Shown here piece after piece: positions 11,506 through 29,339 of a stretch of DNA of 29,870 nucleotides. The stretch covers positions 1-29,870 of IMG/VR virus record IMGVR_UViG_2703718835_000002; one strand, written 5' to 3'. The stretch comes from a virus. Its lineage: Duplodnaviria > Heunggongvirae > Uroviricota > Caudoviricetes. Both the position numbers and the translations under genes were made by a program. Position 1 is the stretch's first letter. Every line of letters begins with the position of its first letter. The notes below the pieces were generated by a model. It had not been told where the DNA came from and made no database searches. It saw only the letters and a list, made by a program, of their open reading frames with translations.

Positions 11506-13272
11506 ATGAACACCACACTGACACCCGCAGATCTCGATCCCCGTCGGCAGGCCATGCTGCTCTACTTTCAGGGATACCGCGTAGCCCGCATTGCTGAAAT
11601 GCTGGGCGAGAAAGTTGCAACCGTTCACAGCTGGAAAAAACGCGACAAGTGGGGTGACTATGGGCCGCTGGATCAGATGCAGCTCACCACCGCCGCACGC
11701 TACTGCCAGCTCATTATGAAGGAGCACAAAGAAGGGAAAGATTTCAAAGAGATTGACCTGCTGGCGCGCCAGTCGGAACGCCACGCGCGGATCGGCAAGT
11801 TTAACAATGGCGGCAACGAAGCCGACTTAAACCCTAACGTTGCCAACCGCAACAAAGGCCCGCGCCGTCAGCCGGAAAAGAATGTTTTCACCGATGAGCA
11901 GATTGAGAAGCTGGAAGAAATCTTCCATTCCTCCATGTTCAACTACCAGCGCCACTGGTGGGAAGCCGGAAAAACCAACCGCATCCGCAACCTGCTGAAA
12001 TCACGCCAGATCGGCGCGACCTTTTACTTTGCCCGTGAAGCCCTGATTGACGCTCTGCTTACCGGACGTAACCAGATTTTCCTTTCCGCCAGCAAGGCAC
12101 AGGCCCACGTCTTTAAGCAGTACATCATCGACTTCGCCAAAGAAGTGGAAGTGGAGCTGAAAGGCGATCCGATGGTGCTTCCCAACGGGGCCACGCTTTA
12201 CTTCCTCGGCACCAATGCCCGCACGGCCCAGAGTTACCACGGCAACCTGTATCTGGATGAATATTTCTGGATACCGAAATTCCAGGAGCTGCGCAAAGTG
12301 GCTTCCGGTATGGCTATTCACAAAAAATGGCGACAAACCTATTTTTCCACGCCATCCAGCCTGACCCACAGTGCTTATCCGTTCTGGTCCGGTGCGCTGT
12401 TCAACCGTGGGCGCAACAAGGCCGACAAGGTGGACATCGACCTGTCCCACAGCAATCTGGCCCCCGGCCTGCTGTGCGCAGACGGGCAATACCGCCAGAT
12501 AGTCACCGTGGAAGATGCGGTGCGCGGCGGCTGTAACCTGTTCGACCTTGACCAGTTGCGCATGGAGTACAGCCCGGACGAATACCAGAACCTGCTGATG
12601 TGCGAGTTTGTGGACGATCTCGCGTCCGTGTTCCCGCTCAGCGAGCTGCAGGCGTGCATGGTGGACAGTTGGGAAGTCTGGACCGACTTTCATGCACTGG
12701 CTCTGCGCCCGTTTGGCTGGCGCGAAGTGTGGATCGGTTATGACCCGGCAAAAGGTACGCAAAACGGCGACAGCGCCGGATGCGTGGTGGTGGCACCGCC
12801 AGCCGTGTCGGGTGGTAAGTTCCGCATTCTTGAGCGTCACCAGTGGCGCGGGATGGACTTCCGCGCCCAGGCTGACGCGATCAAAAAACTGACCGAACAG
12901 TACAACGTGACCTACATCGGCATCGACTCGACCGGCGTCGGTCACGGGGTTTACGAGAACGTGAAAGCGTTTTTTCCAGCCGTCCGGGAGTTTGTCTACA
13001 ACCCCAACGTTAAAAACGCCCTGGTACTCAAAGCCTACGACATTATCAGTCACCGCCGTCTGGAGTTTGACGCCGGGCATACCGACATTGCGCAGTCCTT
13101 TATGGCAATCCGTCGTGCCACCACCGCCAGTGGCAACCGCCCGACCTATGAAGCCAGCCGCAGCGAAGAGGCCAGCCACGCCGATCTGGCCTGGGCAACA
13201 ATGCACGCACTGTTTAACGAACCGCTGCAGGGCGAGTCCGCCAATACCAGCAATATTGTGGAGATTTTTTGA
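11506..13272 (+). CDS. P: Terminase ATPase (large) subunit gpP
   Basis: 588 aa, P2 gpP-like throughout. Confidence 0.95.
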   Translation: MNTTLTPADLDPRRQAMLLYFQGYRVARIAEMLGEKVATVHSWKKRDKWGDYGPLDQMQLTTAARYCQLIMKEHKEGKDFKEIDLLARQSERHARIGKFNNGGNEADLNPNVANRNKGPRRQPEKNVFTDEQIEKLEEIFHSSMFNYQRHWWEAGKTNRIRNLLKSRQIGATFYFAREALIDALLTGRNQIFLSASKAQAHVFKQYIIDFAKEVEVELKGDPMVLPNGATLYFLGTNARTAQSYHGNLYLDEYFWIPKFQELRKVASGMAIHKKWRQTYFSTPSSLTHSAYPFWSGALFNRGRNKADKVDIDLSHSNLAPGLLCADGQYRQIVTVEDAVRGGCNLFDLDQLRMEYSPDEYQNLLMCEFVDDLASVFPLSELQACMVDSWEVWTDFHALALRPFGWREVWIGYDPAKGTQNGDSAGCVVVAPPAVSGGKFRILERHQWRGMDFRAQADAIKKLTEQYNVTYIGIDSTGVGHGVYENVKAFFPAVREFVYNPNVKNALVLKAYDIISHRRLEFDAGHTDIAQSFMAIRRATTASGNRPTYEASRSEEASHADLAWATMHALFNEPLQGESANTSNIVEIF

Positions 13273-14330
13273 TGGGAAAGAGTAAGAAGAACCGCGCTGC
13301 GTCGACGAACCAGATTCAGCATAAAAGCCAGACTTCAGCCGAAGCATTCAGCTTCGGTGATCCCGTTCCAGTACTTGACCGCCGCGAACTGCTGGACTAT
13401 GTGGAATGCGTACAGACAGATCGCTGGTATGAGCCGCCCGTCAGCTTTGACGGACTGGCGCGCACCTTCCGCGCCGCTGTGCATCACAGCTCCCCCATCA
13501 GTGTTAAGCGTGACATTATCAGCAGTACCTATATTCCGCATCGTCTTCTCAGTCAGCAGGCATTTACCCGTTTTGTGCAGGACTATCTGGTTTTTGGTAA
13601 CGGCTACCTGGAGAAGCGCACGAACCGTTTCGGTGAAGTTATTTCGCTGGAGCCTGCACTGGCAAAATACACCCGGCGCGGGCTTGACCTTGAAACATAC
13701 TGGTTTGTGCAATACAGCCTGACGACACAGCCGTATCAGTTCACAAAAGGTAACGTCTTCCACCTGATGGAGCCGGATATCAACCAGGAGATTTATGGTC
13801 TGCCAGGTTACCTTTCTGCCATTCCATCCGCCCTGCTCAACGAGTCCGCCACGCTGTTCCGCCGGAAGTATTACATTAACGGCAGCCATGCGGGCTTCAT
13901 CATGTACATGACCGACGCCGCGCAGAACCAGGAGGATGTGAACAACCTCCGCAACGCAATGAAAAGTGCCAAAGGTCCTGGTAACTTCCGTAACCTGTTT
14001 ATGTACTCGCCTAACGGCAAAAAGGACGGGCTTCAGATCATCCCGTTATCGGAGGTTGCGGCAAAGGATGAGTTTCTGAACATCAAGAACGTGAGCCGCG
14101 ATGACATGATGGCAGCGCACCGCGTACCGCCGCAGATGATGGGCATTATTCCCAACAATACCGGCGGCTTTGGTGATGTGGAAAAGGCCAGCCGCGTCTT
14201 TGTCCGCAACGAGCTGATGCCGCTGCAGAAGCGACTGCAGGAGCTTAACGACTGGCTGGGTGAAGAGGTGATCTGCTTCGAGCCTTATTCTTTACAACTT
14301 GATGAAAGTGCTGATAGCAACAGGGGGTAA
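13272..14330 (+). CDS. Q: Portal protein gpQ
   Basis: P2 Q-like; ATG at 13272 overlaps the P stop (TGATG); the ORF track begins at a TTG one codon earlier. Confidence 0.95.
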   Translation: MGKSKKNRAASTNQIQHKSQTSAEAFSFGDPVPVLDRRELLDYVECVQTDRWYEPPVSFDGLARTFRAAVHHSSPISVKRDIISSTYIPHRLLSQQAFTRFVQDYLVFGNGYLEKRTNRFGEVISLEPALAKYTRRGLDLETYWFVQYSLTTQPYQFTKGNVFHLMEPDINQEIYGLPGYLSAIPSALLNESATLFRRKYYINGSHAGFIMYMTDAAQNQEDVNNLRNAMKSAKGPGNFRNLFMYSPNGKKDGLQIIPLSEVAAKDEFLNIKNVSRDDMMAAHRVPPQMMGIIPNNTGGFGDVEKASRVFVRNELMPLQKRLQELNDWLGEEVICFEPYSLQLDESADSNRG

Positions 14331-14333
14331 TGT

Positions 14334-14696
14334 ATGGGATGGATCGGCGTTGATCTGGATGGCACGCTGGCGGTGTACCCGCCAGAGAGCGGGGCGCTAA
14401 TAGGTGATGCCATTCCCGGCATGGCGGAAAGGGTCCGCAAATGGCACAAGGATGATATTGAAGTACGAATTTTTACCGTCCGGGCTGGTTCGCGTGCCGG
14501 AGTGAAGCAAGTTAAAGCCTGGTTGAAAGCCAATGAACTGCCGGACCTGATGGTGACGAACGTTAAAGACAGCGGCATGGTGGAATTATGGGATGACAGA
14601 GCGATACGTGTTATCCGTAATACCGGTTCAGTATGCGCCGGTTGCAACGGCACATCGCAGTTCCACCACCATTCAGGAGATTTCACCAACTGCTGA
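14334..14696 (+). CDS. Hypothetical 120-aa protein with HAD-like motif I (VDLDGTL), coupled to Q
   Basis: ATG 3 nt after the Q stop, SD GGGGGT; N-terminal GWIGVDLDGTLA resembles the DxDGT phosphatase motif I, but the protein is short for a full HAD fold. Confidence 0.6.
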   Translation: MGWIGVDLDGTLAVYPPESGALIGDAIPGMAERVRKWHKDDIEVRIFTVRAGSRAGVKQVKAWLKANELPDLMVTNVKDSGMVELWDDRAIRVIRNTGSVCAGCNGTSQFHHHSGDFTNC

Positions 14697-14728
14697 GCCG
14701 GCAGGCATTCCGTTAACCATAACCTGAG

Positions 14729-14763
14729 CGCCTCAGCAGCATTCTGCGGGGCGCTTCTTTTTT
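14729..14763 (+). terminator. Rho-independent terminator after the P-Q-ORF120 operon
   Basis: GC-rich interrupted hairpin (GCGCC..GCAG-catt-CTGC..GGCGC) followed by TTCTTTTTT. Confidence 0.5.
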
Positions 14764-14850
14764 GCTGCCGCTCCCTCACCCTCACCGATTGAAGCCGCCA
14801 GCGTGCCGGAGATTGCGCCGGATTTTCACCATTTCACCCCGTTGCGCGCG

Positions 14851-14869
14851 CTCGTATCCCCGCCACGCC
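14851..14869 (-). other. Candidate cos cohesive-end site (P2/186-like 19-mer)
   Basis: Reverse complement GGCGTGGCGGGGATACGAG shares its first 13 nt with the P2/186 cohesive-end sequence as I recall it (GGCG.GGCGGGGAAAGCA.); located just beyond the portal gene as in P2. Confidence 0.35.
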
Positions 14870-14913
14870 TGCCCGCTTTATGTAGTGGTTTTCATGCACC
14901 TGCATGATCTACG

Positions 14914-14938
14914 CAAAAGCCCACCAGTTCTGGCGGGC
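14914..14938 (-). terminator. Rho-independent terminator for the leftward DinI-family operon
   Basis: Minus-strand GCCCGCC-agaact-GGUGGGC hairpin (one G.U pair) followed by UUUUG. Confidence 0.4.
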
Positions 14939-15073
14939 CTTAGCAAAAACGATCCTCAAACAATCATGCGATCTCATGCGGCATAGACATGCACTACAGA
15001 GCTAACGCCTCGCAAGGGTTCGTTGTTCAACCTTGCTGACGCCAGAAACAAGTTCAGACGCCAGCAACGTTTC

Positions 15074-15307
15074 TTAATGCAGCCAGCTGTCGTCTTCCCA
15101 CACCTTCTGCATAATTTTCATCACTTGCTTCCTTTCTTCGTCCAGTTGCAGTCCGGTCAGTTCCACACCGTTAGAGCTACCTTTGCGGATACGAATTACC
15201 GTTTTGGGATACAGGGGGCGCAGATTACGGTAAAGCTCGGATTCAAGGGCGTCCAGGGTAGACTGGCTAATCTTCTGCTCTTTATCGATCATTATTTCAA
15301 TGCGCAT
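15074..15307 (-). CDS. DinI-family protein (SOS-inducible; 186 Tum-like position)
   Basis: Start taken at MRIEIMIDKEQ with SD GAGGTGA; ..LDALESELYRNL...VIRIRKGSSNGVELTG...KQVMKIMQKVWEDDSW is DinI-like. Confidence 0.8.
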   Translation of the reverse strand: MRIEIMIDKEQKISQSTLDALESELYRNLRPLYPKTVIRIRKGSSNGVELTGLQLDEERKQVMKIMQKVWEDDSWLH

Positions 15308-15317
15308 AAAAGTCACC

Positions 15318-15506
15318 TCAGCTGATGACATCCATTGAGCGGTTGTATTCGTGGCTTCTGATTTTTGCCATGAGTTCATCAGTCAATTCAGAAACCCACT
15401 GCAGAGCCAGTCCCTTCTCTTCATCACTACACTCACTGGCCGCTACAAGCTTAAGAAAAAAATCAATGCGCTGGAGCTTCAAAGACTCCAAAAAATAGTC
15501 CTGCAT
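15318..15506 (-). CDS. Hypothetical 62-aa protein, first gene of the LexA-controlled operon
   Basis: Strong SD AGGAGG 5 nt before ATG; directly downstream of the LexA box. Confidence 0.55.
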   Translation of the reverse strand: MQDYFLESLKLQRIDFFLKLVAASECSDEEKGLALQWVSELTDELMAKIRSHEYNRSMDVIS

Positions 15507-15549
15507 CTTTCCTCCTATGACACCACACGCAATACTGTATGCATAACCA

Positions 15550-15565
15550 CTGTTTATAATTACAG
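15550..15565 (-). promoter_or_regulatory. LexA operator (SOS box) overlapping the promoter of the ORF62-DinI operon
   Basis: CTGT-ttataatt-ACAG is a perfect CTGT-N8-ACAG with AT-rich spacer, 40-55 nt upstream of the ORF62 start; TTTACA -35-like hexamer upstream on the minus strand. Confidence 0.7.
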
Positions 15566-15659
15566 TATATAATAATCTTACTGATGTAAAACGTTTTTTT
15601 ACGTTTATCAGCCTGATATGCCTGGTATTATTAAGAGCACGAATGGTTAACCATCGTAA

Positions 15660-18074
15660 TTAATACAGGTTTCGCCACTTATCATCTTCCTGCAAACGCT
15701 GGTTCCGATAGAAGATACGCAGGCCTGCTCCTGACGGAATACTGCCGCCGCGAAGGAGTAAATCGACCTCTTTCTCGCTACCATCAAACCCTCTGGACTT
15801 CAGCTCATACACGAGCTGCTGTCGCTGATGGTCTGTAATTCGCTGTTTGTAGTCTTTACGCCGTTTCGGTTTAACCAGGTGTAACCTTGCTGCCAGTTCC
15901 CGGCGTTCTTTTTTGCTCATACTGTGCAGGTAATCGTGCAACTCCTTGTCATCCATGCGGGTGATATCCGTTCTGGTATCCCCATCAGCTGATTTGTCTT
16001 TCCCTTGTTGGTTCAAATTTTCAGCAAGGGGACAGTTATTGCCACGAGTCCAAGGGGCGCAAGCGCCCTGGTCGGCTGCCGCCTCCTGAACGTCAACGGC
16101 CTTACGAACCATTTTCCACTTCACGGCATGAGTGCAGATCTTGCCCTCTGCAATAGGTGACCAGATGCCATAAATACGAATGCCGTGATCGCCATAGGCG
16201 GTCGGCTCTTCGTTGATTTCATAAGCAGTTCTGATGAGGTGATATTTACGGGGAACCAGTACGCCGCCCTGCTTCATGATGTAGGTGGCAAAACAACCAG
16301 CATCAGCAGCAGCCAGGATTGCATCAAGCCGCGGGTTATCCAGTACCGGCGCACCTGCTTTTTTGTCACCCTGTTGCCTTGCCGCCTGACCAGCCAGCAA
16401 TCGCAGTTCACGGTAAGCCTGACGCCCCGGAATGCCAAAGAAGCGGAATTGCTGAACACGATGCAGAGACGCCCAGGCATTCACGTATTCAGCGTTATCA
16501 CGCAGGGATTTACCCGTTTCCTTGCTGATCTCGCCAGCCAGACCACGCCCGTCAATGTTCTTACTGATATATTTCGCGATGTAGCTTGTCGGCGTTCCTT
16601 TGCGCGGGTTAATCAACTCAGACTTAAAGCGTGGTCCCGTGTTATTCCCCAGCTCCTCGCGGTCTTCACGAATGGCAAACTTACGCAACAAAGCAGTAAT
16701 GGCGCGGCGATCTTTTTTGCGCATAAAACACAACAGGTGCCAGTGAACTGTACCGTCATGATGCGGCTCAGCCACCCGCACGCCATACCAGCGCAATCCG
16801 GCTTTGTGCATCGCCTTACGAAATGCAGCAAACATGCCAACCAGATAATCACTGCTTTGTCTTACCGTCGCATTTGTCCAGGTCGGGTTGGGCCTGCCGT
16901 TATTTAGCGTGGAATGGAAACGTGACGGACAGGTGATGGTGTAGAAAACGGCGCAGTCACCGCGCATTTCCGCGATAAGCTCCAGGCCTTTAACACAGGC
17001 CATCATCTCATTGCGGCGATGCGCAGGGTTGCTGCTGCTGGCGTTTACCACATCCTCCATGTCCAGCGTGTCGCCGTCTTCGTTCACCAGTTCATGAGAA
17101 CGGAAAAACTCCAGCGACTTACGGCGCTGCTCACGTTTATGCATCACGGCTTCATAGCTGACATAGGGAGATGCTTTTTTGCTGACCAGACAGACAGCAC
17201 GCAACTGCTCTTCCCGCCATTCGCAACGCATCTTCCATAATTTCCGATACCACCAGTCGGCGCACAGCATACGCGCCAGCGAACCCGGAATGAGTTCATA
17301 GGGCACAGGTTTGCGGCGGTTTCTTTTCCGGCGGAGTTGCTCAAACGCAGGCGGTATGACATCCAGTCGCAGGGTTTCTGCTGCCACCTTTTCCCATGTC
17401 TTGCGGATTTCTTCCGGCTTAACATCATCGGAGGCGTACAAATCACCACAAGCGGCATCAAGACACATGCTCATATGCGCAGCGACAAGGGTGGACAGGC
17501 GTTTCACCTGATCCTGACTCATTTCAGGCAGGATCAGCAGACCGTCCAGCCCTTCATGGCTTGCCATAAAACGAAAAGATGCAGATAGCTGGCTGTCGCG
17601 TACATGCTCCAGTCGTTCCAGGCATGGCTTAATCGTCTCACGCAAATAGCGGGAATAAGCCTTTGGCCTGCCCAGGTTGCTGAAGTATTTAATACGTTGC
17701 ATCAGCGGCTTGCTGATATGGGAAGGCTGGGCGTTGACATCCGCCAGAATGACCATGTCTGGATTAAAACGCTGCTGCTCATGCGCCAGCTTTGCCCGGC
17801 TAATTAGCTTATCCTGCTCCATTTCGCGCTGGACAGGATCACGGGATTCATTAAAGAAATAACGCTCCCAGACCTGATCACTCAGTGCCTCGCGGCGCAG
17901 TTGTTCCTGCTCGTTATCGGCAGCGTACAGAGTGATCAGGTTTGAAAGCGCAGAAACCGGCGCAACTTCCGCCGGGTCCAGATAAGGGTTAATGGCCTTT
18001 TTCGGGCTGTTCCATGAGAATGCTGCGGCAGCCTCGTTAAAGCCGCAGCAGTTGTTCATATCGGCATGACTCAT
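15660..18074 (-). CDS. A: Rolling-circle replication initiator / endonuclease (P2 gpA, 186 RepA family)
   Basis: 804 aa; contains ..[11 protein letters not shown].. (HUH-like) and ..[14 protein letters not shown].. (catalytic Tyr region) typical of the P2 A family. Confidence 0.9.
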
Positions 18075-18928
18075 GCACGTACTCCGTACACGGCAGAACT
18101 GTCCACGCCACGCGAATAATCAAATCCCACCCAGCAGCGCGGCCCGGAAACAGCAATGATTTCTGTTGCTGATTTACCCTCGCCAGCTGCCACACCGATG
18201 TTGCGTTTTGCCTTGATGTAGTGGTGAGTAAAATTGCGATACAGCGAACGGATCAGGGATGTGTCACTGTTAGAAACAATGACCGGATGTCCTTCTGATG
18301 ACCGATGTTCAAGAACGGATGCCAGGTGATACTGGTCATCTTCAGTGAAGCCGTCAGTGTGATAACCGGAAAACGTGCCGTCATACGGCGGATCGCAATA
18401 CACCACATCCCCCGCCTTCAACATCGCCAGCGTTTCATCAAAGCTGGCGCAGATAAACGTTGCCCGCTGGGCTTTTTCTGCAAATGCGCGAATTTCTTTT
18501 TCAGGGAAATACGGATTTTTATAATTACCGTAGGGAATGTTGAAATGCCCGCTCTTGTTATAGCGACATAAACCACGGTAACCGTGACGATTGAGATACA
18601 GGAAATATACCGCTTTCATGAAATCAGTAATTTCAGTAGAGTAATTAAACTCCTGCCTTATGTTGTAATAAGCCACCTCCCTGTTTGCGATCTCAAATAA
18701 AACTCTGGCGCGAGATATAAACGATTCACAATCAGCGGCAACCTTTTTATAGAGGTTGATTAAATCAGGATTAATATCCGCAACCAGATAGCTGGGGTAA
18801 TCCGTCTCCATCATCACAGCACAGGAACCCGCGAAAGGTTCAACCAGTCGCGGGCCAGCAGGAAGGTGTTTTTTCAGTTCGGACATAATGGCGGTTTTAT
18901 TTCCCGCCCATTTCAGGATGGTGCTCAT
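18071..18928 (-). CDS. dam: DNA adenine N6-methyltransferase (Dam-like)
   Basis: Start taken at [11 protein letters not shown] with SD GGAGGTG; motif I ..FAGSCAV.. and motif IV DPPY; start and stop overlap neighbours by ATGA. Confidence 0.9.
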
Positions 18929-19152
18929 ACAGCACCTCCGTTGTAATGTTTGCCTTTCAGCTCTGCGATTTCCTGACAGGTAATGCAAAGCTGCACACCT
19001 GGAATGGCGCGGCGGCGTGCTGGCGGAATTGGCGCTTCACACTCAATGCAAAGCACGCGGGACACGCCCGGCGTTTTGGCACGGGCAGCACGGATATGGC
19101 GCTGGCGTTCTTCTTCAACGCGCTGCTGTACAAGATCCATTGCATCAGCCAT
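18925..19152 (-). CDS. TraR/DksA-family C4 zinc-finger protein
   Basis: 75 aa with CIEC-x17-CITC (Cys4) and an N-terminal helix. Confidence 0.75.
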   Translation of the reverse strand: MADAMDLVQQRVEEERQRHIRAARAKTPGVSRVLCIECEAPIPPARRRAIPGVQLCITCQEIAELKGKHYNGGAV

Positions 19153-19965: not shown

Positions 19966-20475
19966 TCACAGCAAACCGAATGACGCACCGAGGCCAGTTA
20001 CAGTATCAACTGCACTTGCCATCGCAGGATTAGCCTGTAAACGGGCCTGCAATGAAACAGCCGCCAGCGCCATCAGTCGTGTTACAGAGTTAATGCTGCT
20101 GATAGCATCACGACGACCTGCACTGGTTTTTACATCGCCAGATACCGCACCTGCAGCAACACGCCCGATCTCTGCAGTTGCACTCATGACGTAATGCGGC
20201 AGTTTCTCTTTTGCCACCTCATTAATCGGAACACATGGCAGACAATGAATCTGTGCCAGAAAACCGTCTACCAACGTTGAATCTTCAGTCAGATCGGTAA
20301 GCAACCAGATTTCTGGTGCGGTGAGCTGATGCGGTTGATCTGGATTGAGTTTGTTTCGCAGTGTCTGAACATTCATTCCTGCACGTTCTGCCAGCTTTGC
20401 CATATTGTGACGTAGTGCAAAAGCTCTACAGGCTTCATCAAAATGCGGATGTTTGGAAATCTTGTAATCAAACAT
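19966..20475 (-). CDS. cII: CII-like lysogeny establishment regulator (186-type)
   Basis: 169 aa, second gene of the lytic operon after apl; 186-type length and position, central HTH-like ..NVQTLRNKLNPDQ.. Confidence 0.7.
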   Translation of the reverse strand: MFDYKISKHPHFDEACRAFALRHNMAKLAERAGMNVQTLRNKLNPDQPHQLTAPEIWLLTDLTEDSTLVDGFLAQIHCLPCVPINEVAKEKLPHYVMSATAEIGRVAAGAVSGDVKTSAGRRDAISSINSVTRLMALAAVSLQARLQANPAMASAVDTVTGLGASFGLL

Positions 20476-20507: not shown

Positions 20508-20756
20508 TTAGTCACCAACGATGACATTAAAGTTGAAATTGGATTGGCCCATGTTTTTCCTGACTTGTTCCTTTTTGTACTCAAGGTAACGTATACATAC
20601 TCTGTCTTTCGGTTTTTCTTTTCTTTCCAAGAATTTAGCGAGTTTACCATTATGAATCATTTGATATACCGAACCGCGAGAGCGGCCTTCCCATTCCGCG
20701 AACTCAGCTGGTGTCGCCATCACTTTTGGTACACGAATTGAAATGTCGTTGCTCAT
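20508..20756 (-). CDS. apl: Apl/Cox-type excisionase and repressor of the lysogenic promoter
   Basis: 82 aa, first gene divergent from cI; small basic DNA-binding-like protein. Confidence 0.7.
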   Translation of the reverse strand: MSNDISIRVPKVMATPAEFAEWEGRSRGSVYQMIHNGKLAKFLERKEKPKDRVCIRYLEYKKEQVRKNMGQSNFNFNVIVGD

Positions 20757-20875: not shown

Positions 20876-21508
20876 ATGATACAAGTAAAAGCTGGCGAGA
20901 ATACAGGGGGAAGAGAGGCTATCCATAGGCTAATGGCAGCCTATGATTTCAAGTCCAGACAGCAACTTTGCGATCACTTGGGCGCATCAAAAAGCACTAT
21001 GGCAAACAGATACTTAAGAGATAGTTTTCCTGCAGAATGGGTGATTCAGTGCGCTTTGGAAACAGGAGTTTCTTTACTGTGGCTAACTACCGGACAGGGC
21101 GATCCAGGTTCAAACATTGACCCTAAAAAAAATATCAATTCCGTGAACTCTAGCAAAGTTAAACCTCTTTCGGAGCTTGTATCTCCTGAAATTGACAAGG
21201 CAACTCTCAACGGAGGTTTGCTGATCGATGCTGGAAAAGCAATCATTGATAGCAGCATACTCCCCTCAGACTCAAGCAACCTGCTGCTGGTGACTACTTC
21301 TGGTGATTCTTATTTAATAGATCGCAACCAAACACCACCAGTAAATGGTACGTGGTTAGTGGACATCGACGGGATAAAAAGCATTGTAAAATTGACACGA
21401 CTCCCGGGAAACAGATTAGTAGTGCATCAGGATGATTCATCGTTTGAGTGCGAACTGGATGACATTGAGGTAATAGGCCGCGCACTGAAAATCATTAAGA
21501 GCCTTTGA
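20876..21508 (+). CDS. cI: CI immunity repressor (186-type)
   Basis: 210 aa; N-terminal HTH-like region (..QQLCDHLGASKSTMANRYL..) plus a C-terminal domain; immediately upstream of int. Confidence 0.85.
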   Translation: MIQVKAGENTGGREAIHRLMAAYDFKSRQQLCDHLGASKSTMANRYLRDSFPAEWVIQCALETGVSLLWLTTGQGDPGSNIDPKKNINSVNSSKVKPLSELVSPEIDKATLNGGLLIDAGKAIIDSSILPSDSSNLLLVTTSGDSYLIDRNQTPPVNGTWLVDIDGIKSIVKLTRLPGNRLVVHQDDSSFECELDDIEVIGRALKIIKSL

Positions 21509-21509
21509 T

Positions 21510-22523
21510 ATGACCATCAGAAAACAGCCGAACGGAAAGTGGTTATGTGAATGCTACCCAAACGGGCGAGATGGCAAACGCGTACGCAAACAATTTGCGA
21601 CGAAAGGCGAAGCCATTGCGTTTGAGAATTTCACCATGGACGAGGTAAACAAGAAACCTTGGCTGGGAGAAAAGGAAGATCGGCGACACCTATCAGAATT
21701 AATTGAGCTGTGGTATTCCCTGTATGGTCAAACACTCGCAGACCCCAAGCGACTCATGGCGAAACTTGGAATTATCTGTAATGGTCTGGGCGATCCCATC
21801 GCTTCAGAGCTGACTGCCGGTGACTTTACGAAATACCGCGAAGCAAGGCTAAAAGGTGAAGTGCGAAATGAAGATGGCACGCTGATGTCGCCCGTTAAGC
21901 CCCGCACGGTAAACCTTGAACAGCGCAATCTATCATCTGTGTTCGGTACATTAAAAAAACTAGGACACTGGTCAGCACCAAACCCGCTGGCAGGACTTCC
22001 GACCTTTAAAATTGCCGAAGGTGAGCTGGCTTTTCTTTCCACGGACGAAATCAAGCGCCTGTTGGCGGCATGTGCTGAATCTCAAAGCCCTAGCTTACTA
22101 ATGATTGCAAAAATATGCCTGGCTACTGGCGCACGGTGGAGTGAAGCCGAAAATCTGCAGGGCCATCAAATATCGAAATACCGAATTACTTATACAAAAA
22201 CAAAAGGCAAGAAAAACCGTACTGTGCCGATATCTCAGGATCTGTATGATGAACTCCCCAAAAACAGAGGAAAGTTATTCACGCCATGCAGAAAAGCCTT
22301 TGAGCGGGCAGTAAAGCGGGCCGGTATTGACCTACCGGAGGGCCAATGCACCCACGTGCTTCGCCATACATTCGCCAGTCACTTTATGATGAACGGCGGA
22401 AACATACTGGTACTGCGTGATATTTTGGGTCATGCCGATATAAAAATGACCATGATTTACGCCCACTTTTCGCCCGATCACCTTGAAGACGCGGTGACTA
22501 AAAATCCTCTTTATAATTTGTAG
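21510..22523 (+). CDS. int: Tyrosine integrase (P2/186 family)
   Basis: 337 aa; C-terminal ..HVLRHTFASHFMMNGGNILVLRDILGHADIKMTMIYAHF.. contains the R..H-x-x-R...Y catalytic signature. Confidence 0.95.
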   Translation: MTIRKQPNGKWLCECYPNGRDGKRVRKQFATKGEAIAFENFTMDEVNKKPWLGEKEDRRHLSELIELWYSLYGQTLADPKRLMAKLGIICNGLGDPIASELTAGDFTKYREARLKGEVRNEDGTLMSPVKPRTVNLEQRNLSSVFGTLKKLGHWSAPNPLAGLPTFKIAEGELAFLSTDEIKRLLAACAESQSPSLLMIAKICLATGARWSEAENLQGHQISKYRITYTKTKGKKNRTVPISQDLYDELPKNRGKLFTPCRKAFERAVKRAGIDLPEGQCTHVLRHTFASHFMMNGGNILVLRDILGHADIKMTMIYAHFSPDHLEDAVTKNPLYNL

Positions 22524-22535
22524 TGGAGACCTATT

Positions 22536-24056
22536 GTGATTCAAAAATTAGATATTCAATCTGATGCGGTTGCAAAGTTAAGAATGGATGCTATTCGTTC
22601 AGAAATCCAAGGTTATTCCCCTGATTTATTTATCGAATTCTGTATGCAATATAACTTACAAAAATTTGAAGATAATATCCACATGTTACGACACATGCCT
22701 TGGATTGTTAATTTATGTCTAAAGTGGTCTGCGTCAGTAACTGGCAAGAATAAAAAATTCAAAATCCTCGATAAAAATCAATCAATAAAACTCTTCCAAA
22801 AAACTTATGAAACCTTGAACATTATTCCTATCGGTCTTGAGAGGAAGAATGGCATGCATTTCTTCATTAGAAATAATCTATACCAACAAGGAATCTACCA
22901 GAAAATTGACGCTCTAAACACAATTAGCAGACAAGTCTTTCTATTTTCAGAACTTGAAAAAAACCATAAAATAAAGACAAGTTTTTTTACTATCACGAAT
23001 GTATCTATCGAAGACTTTCTTAAGCTATCTTACATATTAATAACTCACATAACAGAAGAGCATCCCGTGAGAAAAATGAATGTAGATACATTTACTATAT
23101 TATTTGACATCATTCCTAGAAATACCATTGAGAAATTTCTTGATGCAATATCAATAAATTACAATGAACTATCTACATTTTGCAAATCTAAAACCTATGA
23201 TAAACCTTTGCTTGAATACTACTCATCATCACCTTTTCTTGAAAAACCATTAATAAAAAAAGGTTCAGAGTATTTTCAGATACACACACAACTGACTTCA
23301 ACAAGCATACAGACGTTCATATATGATCTTTTAAGAAGAACTGATGCCGAGAAGTTCATGGATAGCTTTGGAAATGTATTTGAAAATGCACTGGAATTAA
23401 TACTAAAAGAAAGCGAAATTGATTTTCATAACGAAAAATACCTTAAAGAACGACTACCTAAAGATAATAAAGTAGTTGATTATTTCATTCCACATACTGA
23501 GGCAAATATTTTCATTGATGCTAAAGGCGTTGAGATACACCAAAAAGGCATGGTAACATTACGCCCTGAGGATATTGCAGGAAAAATAAAGAAATCGGTA
23601 TTAAAAGCAATCGAACAATCTCACGAAGTTAATCGAGAAATATACTCTAATGAGCGAATAATAGCTCCATTCAGGGCTAACTCATATATCATTTGCATTA
23701 CATATAAAAACCTTTTCTTAGGCAATGGTAGTATCCTAGCTAATACTTATGCTAAAGATGAGATGAATAAGATATATGACAAGTTTAAACATAACTATCA
23801 TATCCCTACAGAGAATATTTTTTGTCTATCATTTGAAGAGTTTGAATATCTCATTGCATCATGCAAAAGGTTTAAAATTCCGCCTCATGAAGTCTTGCAA
23901 TCTGCAGTTGAAAAGAACAAAAAACCATCAAGTGCTGCTTTCCTATTTTCCCACCATATAGAAGACTATTTTGATAGAGTAGTCAATTCAGTCATAGTCA
24001 ATGAGGCAGGCATTAAAATGGTAGATTCTATTATCAATAAATTAAAGCCTGAATAA
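22536..24056 (+). CDS. Hypothetical 506-aa AT-rich cargo protein with a PD-(D/E)xK-like motif; candidate lysogen-expressed defence/exclusion gene
   Basis: GTG start 12 nt after the int stop with GGAG SD; composition sharply AT-rich versus the prophage backbone; residues about 283-330 read E..E...hhD(315)-x12-D(328)xK(330). Confidence 0.7.
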   Translation: MIQKLDIQSDAVAKLRMDAIRSEIQGYSPDLFIEFCMQYNLQKFEDNIHMLRHMPWIVNLCLKWSASVTGKNKKFKILDKNQSIKLFQKTYETLNIIPIGLERKNGMHFFIRNNLYQQGIYQKIDALNTISRQVFLFSELEKNHKIKTSFFTITNVSIEDFLKLSYILITHITEEHPVRKMNVDTFTILFDIIPRNTIEKFLDAISINYNELSTFCKSKTYDKPLLEYYSSSPFLEKPLIKKGSEYFQIHTQLTSTSIQTFIYDLLRRTDAEKFMDSFGNVFENALELILKESEIDFHNEKYLKERLPKDNKVVDYFIPHTEANIFIDAKGVEIHQKGMVTLRPEDIAGKIKKSVLKAIEQSHEVNREIYSNERIIAPFRANSYIICITYKNLFLGNGSILANTYAKDEMNKIYDKFKHNYHIPTENIFCLSFEEFEYLIASCKRFKIPPHEVLQSAVEKNKKPSSAAFLFSHHIEDYFDRVVNSVIVNEAGIKMVDSIINKLKPE

Positions 24057-24393: not shown

Positions 24394-27300
24394 TCAGAAC
24401 GACCAGTTCACACCAGCTACCGCGTTCCACGGGGATTCCACACCGGCACTATGGCTATACCCCACCCCAAGATGCCCGCTTAACGTACTGCTGAATGAGG
24501 CTTTAATACCTGCCTGGTATATTCCACGTCTGCCCGACAAATAATTGACGAAATTACCGTCACTATTCACTTTCACCCGGTTATCATCGACAAATTCTTT
24601 GCGCACAGCCGCCTTCAGCCACGGCTCAACTTCCATACCGTTCCCCAGACGCATGTTGTAACTCAGCGTTGCGCCCAGTTCACGATATATACTGCGGGTA
24701 TCGACTGATTTCGATTTCATGCCATTGGATAAATGATATTCGGGGTTATCAGCGGTGAACCCCGTTAACGATGCATACGGCGTCAGGTTCCAGTTACCAT
24801 CGGTAAATCGCATCCCGGTTTCAATGTGACCGCCCAGCCCGTTGCTGTGGTAACTGCCATTGGCGGCTCCACCGCTGCTCATTTTACCTGCTACGTTACT
24901 TTTAAAACGGTTCAGCTTCACGACACCGTCCAGATAGAAACCACTTTCATGTTCCCAACTGGCATAGCCGCCCAGAGAATAACTGCCCACACTGCCATGT
25001 CCTCCGCGATCAAAACCGATATGTGAATGGGAATAGCCCATAAAAGCGCCTAGCGTGGTAATTCCTTCAGGAATATCATTACGGCTGTCGATCCCCACTG
25101 TCATTCCGGTCAGCGTCTGCTCAAACCCGGCACCCGCATCGGTGGTGACATTATTACGGGTGTTATACGTCGCCCCCCAGACATTATTGTTGTGTGGACT
25201 CGCTTTCATTATGTTCAACCGCTCGCGAATACTGTTTAGCTCAGCATCAAATACCAACGGTAATGTTGCTGCCATATTGAGTACGGCTGCCGTAGAAGGC
25301 GTAATGCGTTTCTCCGGAACGGGTGTCGGCGTTGGATCGGGAGTAGGGTCTGGTTTTGGATTTGGGTCTGGCTTTGGATCGGGTTTTGGGTCTGGCTTTG
25401 GATTTGGGATGGGGTCCGGGTTGGGTTTGACATCATTGGTCAGGTTCCAGTTGCTGTTGCCGTCACTTTTCAGGACATACTCATAGGTCCCAAGATCAAC
25501 GAAACCGCCGGTATTGCCCAGCGTAAACGAAGCATCCCCTCCCCCTGTTTTCACCAGCGTCATCGCGTCGTCAGACTGTGGGCTGACGCCGGTATCCTGA
25601 ACAAAGATTTTAAAATTACCAGTGGCGTTGTTGTTGACGACCAGTTGATCGCCCCGGGAGCCTGCAACGTTGGTATGCAGGTAGAAATTACCGCTACCGG
25701 AAAGTTCATTGGTTGTCAGCGTATTGTAGATACCGTTAGTTGTGGCAGGCGCTGCTGTTTGTGCTGACAAATAAACATCACCGTCGTTGAGTAGCAAACT
25801 GTTTACTCTATATTCGCAGTTGCTGGTACCTGCACAGGAATTATTGCTGTTAAGCCAGACACTGCCCCGGCTGGCAGCCGTCAGGTCGGCAAGCGTGGTA
25901 TCGACGCCATTTCCCAGAGTCAATGTCGCGCTATCGGTAATCCGGACCGCCCCTTCGAGTTTAACTGGCGTAACATTATCCCGTGGCGTCATTAACGACA
26001 GGCTTCCTGTCGCGCCACTGACCGATGCATCCGCCAGCGTACCTGCGTAGACGATTGCCGTACCGCCAGCGACCTGGAGATCTTCTGCCCGGGCCAGAGC
26101 CTGAAACTCATCTTTTGACCGCCCAAGGGTATATTGCCCGCCAGAGTTAACCTTTGTGGCGGAGTCCTGACCCAGGTTTTGCATTGCCCCACCCTTGCCA
26201 ACCGTGGAGTCGCGAGCTTCGGTACCTGCTAATACCAATAAATTACCGCCATTTTCCAGCAACATATTGGTCGCTAAATTGCCGGAAATGGAAAAAGTAC
26301 CGTACTGGTGAGTACCGCTGATTTCAATACCGTTAGCCGTGCTCGTCTGGAGAGCGGCACCGCTGTTCTGGACGATATCTGTCGCTTTGCCATTATCGTT
26401 GACTGTCAGCGTACCGCCTTCATTGATCTTTGTTTTTATTGCCTCTCCGTTAGCTGAAACTGTTTGTATTCCGCCGTCGTTAATTGTTGTCTCATTCGCC
26501 ACACCCTCGACAATTTGTTCACCGCCGGTGAGCGTCGTGCCTGTCGCAGTGGCTTTTGTTTTGACGATCTCCCGTCCGCCCATATTGACCTGTGTTTTGT
26601 CAGAAGAGGTGTCTGACTCCACGGTTAACACGCCGCCATTTGCCAGCAGGATATTGTTCGCCGCACCCTGCTCGATGCTGAACGCGACGCCATCCGCGCG
26701 TGTTCCTGTGACCCGCGTCGCCCTGGTGGTTGCAACCAAAGCGCCCTGGCTACTCTGCTGTATCCCCGTTGCGCTGCCTTTCTCCCGCACATCGAGTGTG
26801 CCGCCGTCATTAAGCACCGAGTTTTCAGCCAGACCGCCCTCATTAACTACCTGTGAACCCCCATTAATAATGGAACCTTCCGCTGTCCCGTTTGCCATAA
26901 TTTGTTGTAGGCCAGAGACGATATCGGTATTGATTGCCTTACCATAATTCTGAACGGTTTGCGTGCCACCATTGATGTGTGTTTTCTCTGTTGACCCACC
27001 ATCAACAATTTGTTCACCACTTTCGATATTTGCTTCAGTGGCTAAACCATATACCGTTTGCTTGCCACCTTTGATATTTGCTTTATCAGAAGTGGCACTG
27101 GCATATATTGTTTGGGTGCCAGCACTATTGAGTACAGTGCCAACATCTTTTCCATAAACATCCATTTTGCCGTTGGCATTAATAATCGTGTCAACTGCCC
27201 GGGAACCAGTGACGACTGTTAATGAGCCAGCGTTTTCCAGCACTACATTTTTAGCTTCTGAATTCCTGATGTAGAAAGCATCACCATAACTGTTGGTTCC

Positions 27301-28974
27301 TTCGATAAGTGTTCCGGAGGTCGTGGAAGCAATTAATGCGCCGCCGGATTGTTGCTCAACATGCTTAGCCTCACCACCGTCCTGAACCTCCAGAACGCCG
27401 CCATTATTAAGTCTGGTGCTATCTGTTTTAGCCTCCTTCTGGACAATCAGCTTACCGCCAGTATCAATGGTAGTATTTTTCGCCGAGGTTTTAGCCACTA
27501 CCGTCAGTTCGCCGGTATTTTCCAGCACAACATAATTAGCCTCCCCTCCGGTAATAGTGAAGTGAGAGAGCTTGTTGTATCCTTCGATATCAGTCCCTGC
27601 ACCCGTGTTGGCAACTAAAGCACTGCCCGTCTCCTGGTTAACCCCATGTGCAATACCGCCGGTATAGACAATCAGCGAGCCTCCGGCGCTAATATTGCTG
27701 CCAATTACCGTACCATCTTTCTCAACAACCTGCCGGCTCCCGGAGGATATAATTGTTGTGTCAGCTTTCCCGCCGCTTTTGATATTTTGCGTTCCGCTGT
27801 TGATATTGGTGCCTGTGGCTATGCCATAATTATTAATATTCTGTGTGCCACCATTAATTATGGTATTTGTCGCGTTTCCTGCAACATCCATAACCCCGCC
27901 ATTATCTATTCGGGTCGCATCAGCTTTAGCATTGGTTAAAACTGACATTGTTCCTTTATCTTTAATAATCGTCTTGTTTGCCGAACCATATGCGTTTATG
28001 TCTAAATGACCACCGTTTTCCAGCAACACATTGTCTGCCACGTGATTGTGGATGGAGAATGCACCTTCACTATTCGTACCGCTCACCGTCGTACCGTTAG
28101 TGTTAGTTTTTAAAATTGCACCATCGTGCTGGGTAACATTTGTTGCCGTACCACCACTAACATCAAGCACGCCACCAGAATAAACTTCAATAACATCCGA
28201 GGTGCTGGTGTTATCAACAATTTGCGTGCCACCAGAATAGATATGCGTATTTTTTGCCGTTGACTTACTATTCAGAGACTGAGTTCCGCCTTCAATCGTC
28301 GTGTCCAGCGCACGGCTCTCATATACTCTTTGCTCACCGCCATTTTTAATGGTTGTTGTTTCTACTGTGCTCTGTTCAACATACTGTCGACCACCATTTA
28401 TGGTTGTGTTCGTTGCCAGACTTCCTTGTACTACGTCCTGAGAGCCAGACTTATTTATCGTTGTACCATCAGCATGCCCTTGAACTTTTACTATCTGGCT
28501 ACCACCATCAATGAGTATTCCATTCGCACTCCCTCCCTCTACGCGTGAAGCACCGCCCTTAATTGTCGTTCCATTGCTGATACCCCCTTTATAAACGTCC
28601 TGATTGCCACTCTCGATTGTCGTACCTGTGGAAATACCCCCGTCATGAATTGACTGTCTGCCACCGTTAATGGTTGTATTATTAGCCTGCCCCACAAAAT
28701 TGTTATGACTTCCTATATCTTGATATCCACCAGATTCAATAAGACTTCCATTAGATACCCCGCCATGAACATTCTGCTGGCCATGGTTGATAATATGAGT
28801 GTTATTTGTTGTACCTCGTTCATCCACTTTTTGGTTGCCATCTACAGTCTCATCGTTTACCACACCAATAACATTAGTAGTGAAGGCAGCCATCCCGGGC
28901 GGGGCATATATCAAGGCAGATATCAATAAGGAAAGTACTGAGCGGCGACAATAATAGGGACTGGTCCTGTTCAT
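24394..28974 (-). CDS. ypjA: AIDA-I-type autotransporter adhesin (YpjA-like)
   Basis: Start taken at MNRTSPYY (signal peptide ..LISALIYAPPGMAAF); dozens of about 19-aa GG.Q.V..G.A..T.I repeats, Pro-rich linker, C-terminal beta-barrel ending ..GVNWSF. Confidence 0.9.
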   Translation of the reverse strand: MNRTSPYYCRRSVLSLLISALIYAPPGMAAFTTNVIGVVNDETVDGNQKVDERGTTNNTHIINHGQQNVHGGVSNGSLIESGGYQDIGSHNNFVGQANNTTINGGRQSIHDGGISTGTTIESGNQDVYKGGISNGTTIKGGASRVEGGSANGILIDGGSQIVKVQGHADGTTINKSGSQDVVQGSLATNTTINGGRQYVEQSTVETTTIKNGGEQRVYESRALDTTIEGGTQSLNSKSTAKNTHIYSGGTQIVDNTSTSDVIEVYSGGVLDVSGGTATNVTQHDGAILKTNTNGTTVSGTNSEGAFSIHNHVADNVLLENGGHLDINAYGSANKTIIKDKGTMSVLTNAKADATRIDNGGVMDVAGNATNTIINGGTQNINNYGIATGTNINSGTQNIKSGGKADTTIISSGSRQVVEKDGTVIGSNISAGGSLIVYTGGIAHGVNQETGSALVANTGAGTDIEGYNKLSHFTITGGEANYVVLENTGELTVVAKTSAKNTTIDTGGKLIVQKEAKTDSTRLNNGGVLEVQDGGEAKHVEQQSGGALIASTTSGTLIEGTNSYGDAFYIRNSEAKNVVLENAGSLTVVTGSRAVDTIINANGKMDVYGKDVGTVLNSAGTQTIYASATSDKANIKGGKQTVYGLATEANIESGEQIVDGGSTEKTHINGGTQTVQNYGKAINTDIVSGLQQIMANGTAEGSIINGGSQVVNEGGLAENSVLNDGGTLDVREKGSATGIQQSSQGALVATTRATRVTGTRADGVAFSIEQGAANNILLANGGVLTVESDTSSDKTQVNMGGREIVKTKATATGTTLTGGEQIVEGVANETTINDGGIQTVSANGEAIKTKINEGGTLTVNDNGKATDIVQNSGAALQTSTANGIEISGTHQYGTFSISGNLATNMLLENGGNLLVLAGTEARDSTVGKGGAMQNLGQDSATKVNSGGQYTLGRSKDEFQALARAEDLQVAGGTAIVYAGTLADASVSGATGSLSLMTPRDNVTPVKLEGAVRITDSATLTLGNGVDTTLADLTAASRGSVWLNSNNSCAGTSNCEYRVNSLLLNDGDVYLSAQTAAPATTNGIYNTLTTNELSGSGNFYLHTNVAGSRGDQLVVNNNATGNFKIFVQDTGVSPQSDDAMTLVKTGGGDASFTLGNTGGFVDLGTYEYVLKSDGNSNWNLTNDVKPNPDPIPNPKPDPKPDPKPDPNPKPDPTPDPTPTPVPEKRITPSTAAVLNMAATLPLVFDAELNSIRERLNIMKASPHNNNVWGATYNTRNNVTTDAGAGFEQTLTGMTVGIDSRNDIPEGITTLGAFMGYSHSHIGFDRGGHGSVGSYSLGGYASWEHESGFYLDGVVKLNRFKSNVAGKMSSGGAANGSYHSNGLGGHIETGMRFTDGNWNLTPYASLTGFTADNPEYHLSNGMKSKSVDTRSIYRELGATLSYNMRLGNGMEVEPWLKAAVRKEFVDDNRVKVNSDGNFVNYLSGRRGIYQAGIKASFSSTLSGHLGVGYSHSAGVESPWNAVAGVNWSF
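25338..25410. repeat. Tandem 24-bp repeat (about 3 copies) encoding the PKPDPKPD linker of the autotransporter
   Basis: TTGGGTCTGGCTTTGGAT occurs at 25362-25379 and 25386-25403 with a degenerate copy upstream. Confidence 0.4.
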
Positions 28975-29339
28975 AAATTTCATCCTCTGAAAAGTGAATA
29001 CTGAGTAGCGTTTAAGCGACCTTAGCTTTGCTGCAACATCAGCCCACAGGCACCAGACCAGGGGATTCATCCTGAAGAGACAGCGCAAGTGTATTGTGTT
29101 CACCGCTCATCAAAGACATCATGATGAAATGATGATATTCCGCATAAGAATGAGGCATTTTTTAAACGCAGTGCGCTGAAGTGTGGTTGGATAAAAAAGT
29201 CAATCCATTCAGGAAATACGGGCGTATTCTTTTCTTTCGACAATGAGGCCGTTGGCAAAATAAAATGATTTACATAATCGTTTCTGATGAATATCTTCTG
29301 CTCACATAAAAATCACACAATAACTTTGAGATCGCAGAT

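Follow-up and report, generated by a model that had tools for sequence, protein, structure and literature searches.

In phage 186, the Tum protein binds the CI repressor and blocks its binding to the operators (Shearwin et al. 1998, as reported in PMC3121763), and Tum looks like an antirepressor fused to a DinI sequence within one polypeptide (Lemire et al. 2011, PMC3121763). In Fels-2 and PSP3, tum is described as split in two by a stop codon (Bunny et al. 2002, as cited by Lemire et al. 2011, PMC3121763), and the upstream half of the PSP3 gene is said to carry the antirepressor activity (E. Christie, personal communication quoted in PMC3121763). The GenBank record of PSP3 (NC_005340) lists a tumA gene ("similar to 5' end 186 tum; UV induction of prophage") and a tumB gene. 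The dinI-gfoA/gftA operons of Gifsy-1, -2 and -3 are also controlled by LexA and also combine a small antirepressor with a DinI homologue (Lemire et al. 2011, PMC3121763), but they have dinI as the first gene and belong to lambdoid phages, whose repressors that paper places in another family (gfoR/gtgR, DicA/RacR-like). The split Tum operon is thus already known, and the copy analysed here is nearly identical to that of Fels-2.

The tum operon of a Fels-2-like prophage in Escherichia coli

The window, that is, the whole stretch of 29,870 bp that was analysed, carries a Fels-2-like prophage of the P2/186 family whose host is E. coli and which runs in reverse orientation relative to the 186 map (Table 1). 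Beyond the int gene lies E. coli chromosome adjoining ypjA: a 1,569-aa AIDA/pertactin autotransporter encoded at 24394-29103 on the minus strand, labelled ypjA/EhaD in E. coli, represents the host chromosome flank and therefore assigns the window to this species. No tRNA or tmRNA gene was found within the window.

The operon is very probably the SOS-induction module of a Fels-2-type prophage in its split form, and its two genes are called tumA and tumB here. The original prediction had described a leftward operon for a 62-aa protein and a 77-aa DinI-family protein between the replication gene and cos, controlled by LexA and placed where 186 has tum. Both reading frames are present, the second one scoring 81.3 bits against the Pfam DinI family, and the operon is located between gene A and a match to cos (14857-14869). 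The order of gene A, the promoter with its LexA site, tumA, tumB, the hairpins and cos is the order of 186 (A, p95/LexA, tum, cos); together with the alignment of the LexA site with that of 186, this agreement in gene order points to a LexA-controlled operon in the tum position.

Table 1. Features of the tum operon and of the prophage around it. Positions are those of the window.
Feature	Position	Strand	Basis or remark
Terminase	11506-13272	+	ORF list
Portal	13269-14330	+	ORF list
cos-like site GGCGTGGCGGGGATACGAG	14851-14869	-	Similarity to 186 cos
Terminator-like hairpin GGCCCGCCAG-AACU-GGUGGGC, then UUUU	14915-14939	-	RNA fold
Stable hairpin just past the tumB stop	15029-15071	-	RNA fold
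tumB	15074-15307	-	ATG 15307, stop 15074-15076; 77 aa, DinI family
tumA	15318-15506	-	62 aa, putative CI antirepressor; SD GGAGG at 15511-15515
LexA box 2, degenerate, core GTGGTTATGCATACAG	15533-15552, core 15535-15550	-	GTGG-N8-ACAG
LexA box 1 TACTGTAATTATAAACAGTG	15548-15567, core 15550-15565	-	Perfect core CTGT-N8-ACAG
-10 hexamer TACTGT of the putative tum promoter (left half of LexA box 1)	15562-15567	-	Analogy with 186 p95; 0.99 identity
-35 hexamer TTTACA of the putative tum promoter	15585-15590	-	Sequence; 0.99 identity across 25 upstream regions
Replication gene A	15660-18074	-	Pfam Phage_GPA, E 1.6e-127; upstream of the operon
cII-like gene	19966-20475		Part of the 186-type immunity region
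apl-like gene	20508-20756		Part of the 186-type immunity region
CI repressor, 186 type	20876-21508	+	Presumed TumA target
Integrase	21510-22523		Part of the 186-type immunity region

In Fels-2 of Salmonella LT2 the operon takes the same place after gpA and has the same double LexA operator; its products STM2728 and STM2726.1 are 97% and 100% identical to TumA and TumB, respectively. It differs in having an extra gene of 243 aa (STM2726) downstream of the DinI-like gene, whereas tumB of the window leads directly to the hairpins and cos; the host is Salmonella instead of E. coli, and the CI repressor is of a different immunity type. PSP3 shares the split two-gene order after gene A, with proteins of 60 aa and then 77 aa, and its TumB is 78% identical to that of the window, but its TumA is just ~22% identical and there is one LexA box, as in 186. 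The p95-tum unit of 186 is alike in its position, in the LexA box over the -10, in the order of the two modules and in the type of CI target; it is unlike the window in that the modules are fused in a Tum protein of 146 aa, the N-terminal module is just ~20% identical, one LexA box is found instead of two, and orf97 follows tum. Moreover, the DinI-like part of 186 Tum is also made from an internal GTG. This GTG is preceded by a strong SD sequence, AAGGAGG (L001, 7270-7295), so the contrast between a fused and a split tum is smaller than it first seems. The internal SD resembles a ribosome-binding site kept from the time when this part was a gene of its own, and a split ancestor may therefore have given rise to the fused form.

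Predicted promoter and LexA box 1

On the minus strand the upstream region reads TTTACA-N17-TACTGTAATTATAAACAGTGGTTATGCATACAGTA, followed by 25 nt, GGAGG and ATG. The TACTGT -10 sits 17 nt downstream of the TTTACA -35, a layout that equals the annotated p95 of phage 186. With three of six positions matching TATAAT, TACTGT makes a weak -10, which is why a consensus promoter scan of 14700-15700 yielded nothing; the promoter was placed by analogy with the annotated p95 of 186 and by conservation. TATACT was considered as an alternative -10 and rejected, as it would need a 15-nt spacer.

The perfect CTGT-N8-ACAG box over the leftward promoter, described in the original prediction, is present and lies over the -10. 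Box 1 (CTGTTTATAATTACAG) is the sole perfect match to this pattern in the window. The match alone is not significant, because chance would yield 0.35 matches and at least one turns up in 29 of 100 shuffles; the box is judged real for its position and conservation rather than for the match itself. Conservation was assessed in a comparison set of 33 loci from different Enterobacterales species, each encoding a relative of the 62-aa protein (71-98% identity). A LexA box with no more than one mismatch stands at the equivalent upstream place in 31 of them, 25 boxes being perfect and six having one mismatch, mostly the common CCAG variant. The remaining two comprise one locus ended by a contig edge and one decayed locus, L034, in which the LexA box is lost.

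When 25 distinct upstream regions, those of the window and of Fels-2 among them, are compared with the window, identity is 0.99 for the -35 and for the left half of box 1, 0.94 for the right half of box 1 together with the left half of box 2, 0.91 for the right half of box 2 and 0.98 for the SD, but just 0.52 for the promoter spacer and just 0.58 for the leader. The synonymous divergence of the tum genes is saturated (dS ~1) while operator, -35 and SD stay 91-99% conserved, and an operator conserved amid diverged spacer and leader therefore marks a functional footprint. The promoter is overlapped by a predicted LexA operator that aligns with the LexA site of both 186 and PSP3. From the work on 186, PSP3 and Fels-2, this operator would be expected to bind LexA and to make the operon SOS-inducible.

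A second predicted LexA box forms a colicin-type double operator

Box 2 is immediately downstream of box 1, and the two cores share one base. Its half-sites are kept at 0.91-0.94 across the 25 upstream regions, and three loci (L005, L019 and L020) have GTGT-N8-ACAG here, which departs from the core consensus at one position. 186 and PSP3 each have one LexA site, and in both it aligns with box 2, which makes box 1 the extra one.

A blastn search of the 66-bp operator against plasmids gave matches on small colicin plasmids, lying close upstream of cra (colicin R) and cna (colicin N). Box 1 aligns with the first and box 2 with the second SOS box of these promoters, and a near-identical 35-bp element, TATACTGTAcATAaAAcCAGTGGTTATGtgTACAGTATT, is common to the tum and colicin promoters. 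Compared column by column with cna and cra, the tum promoter has almost the same double SOS operator, TATACTGT-N8-A(A/C)CAGTGGTTATG(C/T)(A/G)TACAGTATT, including the one-base overlap of the cores. The two kinds of promoter differ in what they drive, a bacteriocin in one case and a putative prophage antirepressor in the other, and their -35 regions and leaders are unrelated. The colicin double SOS operator binds two LexA dimers, which results in tight repression and late induction (PMC2994835). Because the tum operator matches it, we propose that the tum promoter is likewise doubly locked by LexA, probably by two dimers.

These data bear on the view that the LexA box arose by accident in AT-rich DNA between genes. 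A perfect CTGT-N8-ACAG is indeed expected in 29% of shuffles per 30 kb, but an accidental match would hardly keep its position in 31 of 33 loci amid a diverged spacer and leader, overlap the -10 as in 186 p95, and form part of a 35-bp operator that matches colicin SOS operators over its whole length; we regard this explanation as scarcely credible.

TumB is a phage DinI-like paralogue

TumB matches the Pfam DinI family (PF06183) with 81.3 bits (E 6.6e-23, cut-off 24.2) over profile positions 1-63 of 63. Against the NCBIfam equivalog of chromosomal DinI (NF007893) it scores 42.7 bits, below the cut-off of 111; TumB is a phage DinI-like paralogue and not DinI itself. In the PDB its sequence matches 1ghh, the E. 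coli DinI (E 2.7e-6). TumB aligns without gaps over residues 71-145 of 186 Tum, with 41% identity over 75 residues (E 3e-24), compared with 29-30% identity to E. coli DinI. The comparison with both proteins that the original prediction had called for (41% against 29%) thus places TumB nearer to the C-terminus of Tum than to E. coli DinI. Its description there as a short DinI-like product does not hold: E. coli DinI (81 aa) and TumB (77 aa) belong to the same Pfam family, are alike in length and align end to end. The acidic C-terminal WEDDSW motif of TumB is common to Tum and DinI. By analogy with 186, PSP3 and Fels-2, TumB may interact with RecA filaments.

The SD of tumB (GAGGTG, 15314-15319) overlaps the stop codon of tumA (15318-15320), suggesting coupled translation, and we conclude from this arrangement that tumB is probably translationally coupled to tumA. 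A longer reading of the DinI-like ORF, 101 aa from the ATG at 15379, was set aside, since it overlaps tumA in a different frame and has no SD, and since its extension is not conserved, most loci giving 77 aa from the first ATG.

Loss of tumB and retention of tumA

tumA is present in all 33 loci, although reduced to a 45-aa match in L034. tumB is missing in 13 of the 33 (L008, L010, L019, L022, L027-L034 and L036) and truncated in three more (L018, L021 and L035), and these loci have kept the LexA box with 0-1 mismatch, the decayed L034 excepted. The deletion is clean in some of them, tumA directly abutting the hairpin that follows tumB in the window; the GAACGTTGCTGGCGT... hairpin is found directly after tumA in the tumB-less loci L010, L022 and L036. 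The loss of tumB with tumA kept speaks for TumA as the sole trigger, with TumB as an accessory, and against an obligatory complex of the two.

Such a complex would be required if TumA and TumB reassembled as a Tum-like heterodimer, both parts being needed to inactivate CI. That idea draws on the union of both halves in one polypeptide in 186, on the overlap of the tumB SD with the tumA stop, which suggests coupled and stoichiometric synthesis, and on the equal constraint on the two genes, each of which is under strong purifying selection (median dN/dS ~0.07 at dS ~1). Against it speak not only the 13 loci without tumB and the three with a truncated copy, all of which keep tumA, but also the antirepressor activity said to reside in the upstream gene of PSP3 alone (personal communication quoted in PMC3121763) and the separate synthesis of the DinI-like part in 186 from an internal GTG with its own SD. 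We therefore consider a heterodimer unlikely.

It might also be argued that the split is the decay of tum into a pseudogene through a stop codon, and that the prophage is no longer SOS-inducible. A stop codon does separate the two halves relative to 186; but the split tumA-tumB form is stable in at least 17 genome loci of many genera, each half has its own SD and ATG, and the dN/dS of ~0.07 per half at dS ~1 is not that of a decaying gene. PSP3 and Fels-2, both with the split form, are inducible (PMC2771037, PMC8072944). Decay is thus a very improbable explanation.

The region between tumB and the portal gene and other cargo

Downstream of tumB, the second, terminator-like hairpin is the probable end of the operon; a consensus terminator scan missed it because its U run has a length of four only. 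The first 13 nt of the cos-like site are identical to the annotated cos of 186. Between the portal gene and cos there is a 120-aa ORF (14334-14696, plus strand) with weak PHROG matches to a phosphoheptose isomerase family (E 1e-9) and a polynucleotide kinase family (E 1e-8). It is absent from all 33 related loci and is therefore taken as cargo specific to this lineage. Among loci L004-L036, tumA and the portal gene are ~650 to ~4,800 nt apart, and the ORFs that separate them are unrelated (372 aa in L027, 500 aa in L029 and 393 aa in L035, for instance); given this variable stretch, the tum operon borders a cargo hotspot.

Two further genes were noted elsewhere in the window. A Dam-like, D12-class N6-adenine DNA methyltransferase is encoded at 18071-18988 on the minus strand (Pfam E 1.5e-76), immediately upstream of gene A and overlapping its start. 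An AT-rich ORF of 506 aa (22536-24056, plus strand) is situated directly 3' of the integrase gene; it had no match in a Pfam search and is labelled "GapS1 family protein" in those E. coli genomes whose DNA is 99.7% identical. At the int end of the prophage, it may represent cargo of the defence type.

TumA and the N-terminal half of Tum

TumA has no sequence match in Pfam, NCBIfam or the PDB, and no function is annotated for it in PHROGs or NCBIfam. A BLASTP comparison of TumA with 186 Tum gave no alignment, and the relationship of the two was for this reason examined with profiles. In PHROGs, TumA matches phrog_698 (E 6e-38), phrog_8554 (1e-8) and phrog_1993 (2e-3); residues 1-70 of 186 Tum match the same three profiles, phrog_1993 with 2e-23, phrog_8554 with 3e-12 and phrog_698 with 6.7e-6, at positions colinear with those in TumA. 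A TumA family HMM was built from 28 distinct relatives and searched against 6,493 ORFs. Its best match outside the family is the N-terminus of Tum (E 0.002, colinear at 5-46/5-47), the next decoy having an E-value of 2.7; the same HMM did not detect the TumA of PSP3. These results support homology of TumA to the N-terminal, non-DinI half of 186 Tum at modest E-values (7e-6 and 2e-3).

The AlphaFold2 model of TumA is a two-helix hairpin (helices 2-23 and 28-61) with a pLDDT of 91.5. A Foldseek search of this model against the PDB returned non-specific helical hairpins, none at E <= 0.001, so the fold is uninformative on function.

The original prediction had left a choice between a split or minimal Tum-like module and a RecA modulator rather than an antirepressor. 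The shared PHROG profiles, the HMM match (E 0.002) and the 41% identity of TumB to Tum favour the former, in the form of a split Tum; the latter probably describes the DinI-like half only, the TumA half being read as the antirepressor.

The CI repressor and its uncoupling from TumA

Over 193 aa, the CI protein of the window shares 32% identity with 186 CI (E 6e-34), and it matches the PDB entry of 186 CI, 2fjr, with E 3.4e-25. It is 100% identical to the CI of Klebsiella phage Kp4845-2, while TumA and TumB are Fels-2-like; the immunity and tum regions thus form a mosaic. The identities of TumA and CI were compared in 300 pairs from 25 loci (24 genome loci and the window) and found to be uncorrelated (Spearman -0.12). 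Where TumA is at least 95% identical, the median CI identity is 45%, and near-identical TumA proteins occur in prophages whose CIs are just 35-60% identical. Such a lack of co-variation is unexpected for a specific antirepressor-repressor pair.

One possible reading of the uncoupling is that TumA works as a generalist antirepressor through a conserved surface of CI, and the N-terminal domain is the most conserved part of the CIs in these loci; cross-talk has been shown for the Gifsy antirepressors, which a generalist TumA would echo (PMC3121763). Another is that CI is less secure as the direct target of TumA than has been assumed. We put forward, as a tentative proposal with less than even chances, that TumA of the Fels-2 group is a generalist on a conserved surface of 186-type CIs and cross-induces co-resident P2-like prophages of other immunity, that the colicin-grade double LexA lock limits induction to severe DNA damage, and that TumB is an optional add-on. 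A generalist TumA, a double LexA lock and an optional TumB were not found stated in the literature searched.

The uncoupling is also relevant to the possibility that the operon is mainly of use to the host or to the SOS circuit, as a RecA/SOS modulator, and not the trigger of induction, TumA having some other role. TumB is a bona fide DinI-family protein, TumA carries no functional annotation in PHROGs or NCBIfam, its identity does not follow that of CI (Spearman -0.12, 300 pairs), and deletions of the Gifsy dinI homologues left induction unaffected (PMC3121763), all of which could be cited in favour of this role. The evidence on the other side is that TumA appears homologous to the non-DinI half of Tum, a proven antirepressor; that absence of LexA induces Fels-2, which has 97-100% identical proteins (PMC8072944); and that the CI of the window is of the 186 type, 186 CI being inactivated by Tum and not by RecA-mediated cleavage (PMC3121763). 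As the 186-type CI is not cleaved and UV inducibility is reported for this phage group (PMC2771037), some antirepressor is needed. A role mainly as such a modulator is accordingly improbable.

Proposed mechanism of prophage induction

Taken as a whole, the sequence comparisons and the analogy with 186, PSP3 and Fels-2 make it very likely that the operon is a split tumA-tumB SOS-induction module, in which TumA would be the antirepressor of CI and TumB an accessory RecA modulator. In the lysogen, LexA bound to the two overlapping boxes would cover the -10 and the transcript start and thereby shut the tum promoter. DNA damage would activate RecA and lead to self-cleavage of LexA, and once LexA is low enough to free the double operator, the tum promoter would fire. 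TumA, a predicted two-helix hairpin, would then bind the 186-type CI, which RecA does not cleave; this interaction is proposed by extension of the 186 and PSP3 work. By keeping CI off its operators TumA would open the early lytic promoter, and the prophage would be induced. TumB would act on RecA filaments and tune the SOS signal, as an accessory and not as the trigger.

Significance of the split tum module

The original prediction did not include box 2, the loss of tumB in 13 of 33 prophages or the uncoupling of TumA from CI. The modestly new points of the present analysis are confined to the double operator of colicin type, the finding that tumB is dispensable in related prophages and the TumA-CI uncoupling; they are small, testable refinements and do not amount to a new system. 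As the mechanism is textbook knowledge in the case of 186, and Fels-2 and PSP3 are on record as carrying the split form, the practical value lies in better annotation. Among 5,426 complete E. coli genomes, 1,282 contain DNA similar to the 1-kb tum region, and the best matches listed (97-100% coverage) carry the labels "DinI-like family protein", "hypothetical protein" and "replication endonuclease", in that order; TumA is still labelled "hypothetical protein" almost everywhere. The module, as proposed, would explain how common prophages of E. coli, Salmonella and Klebsiella can be induced by DNA damage although RecA does not cleave their repressor, and it bears on the induction of prophages by antibiotics such as quinolones.
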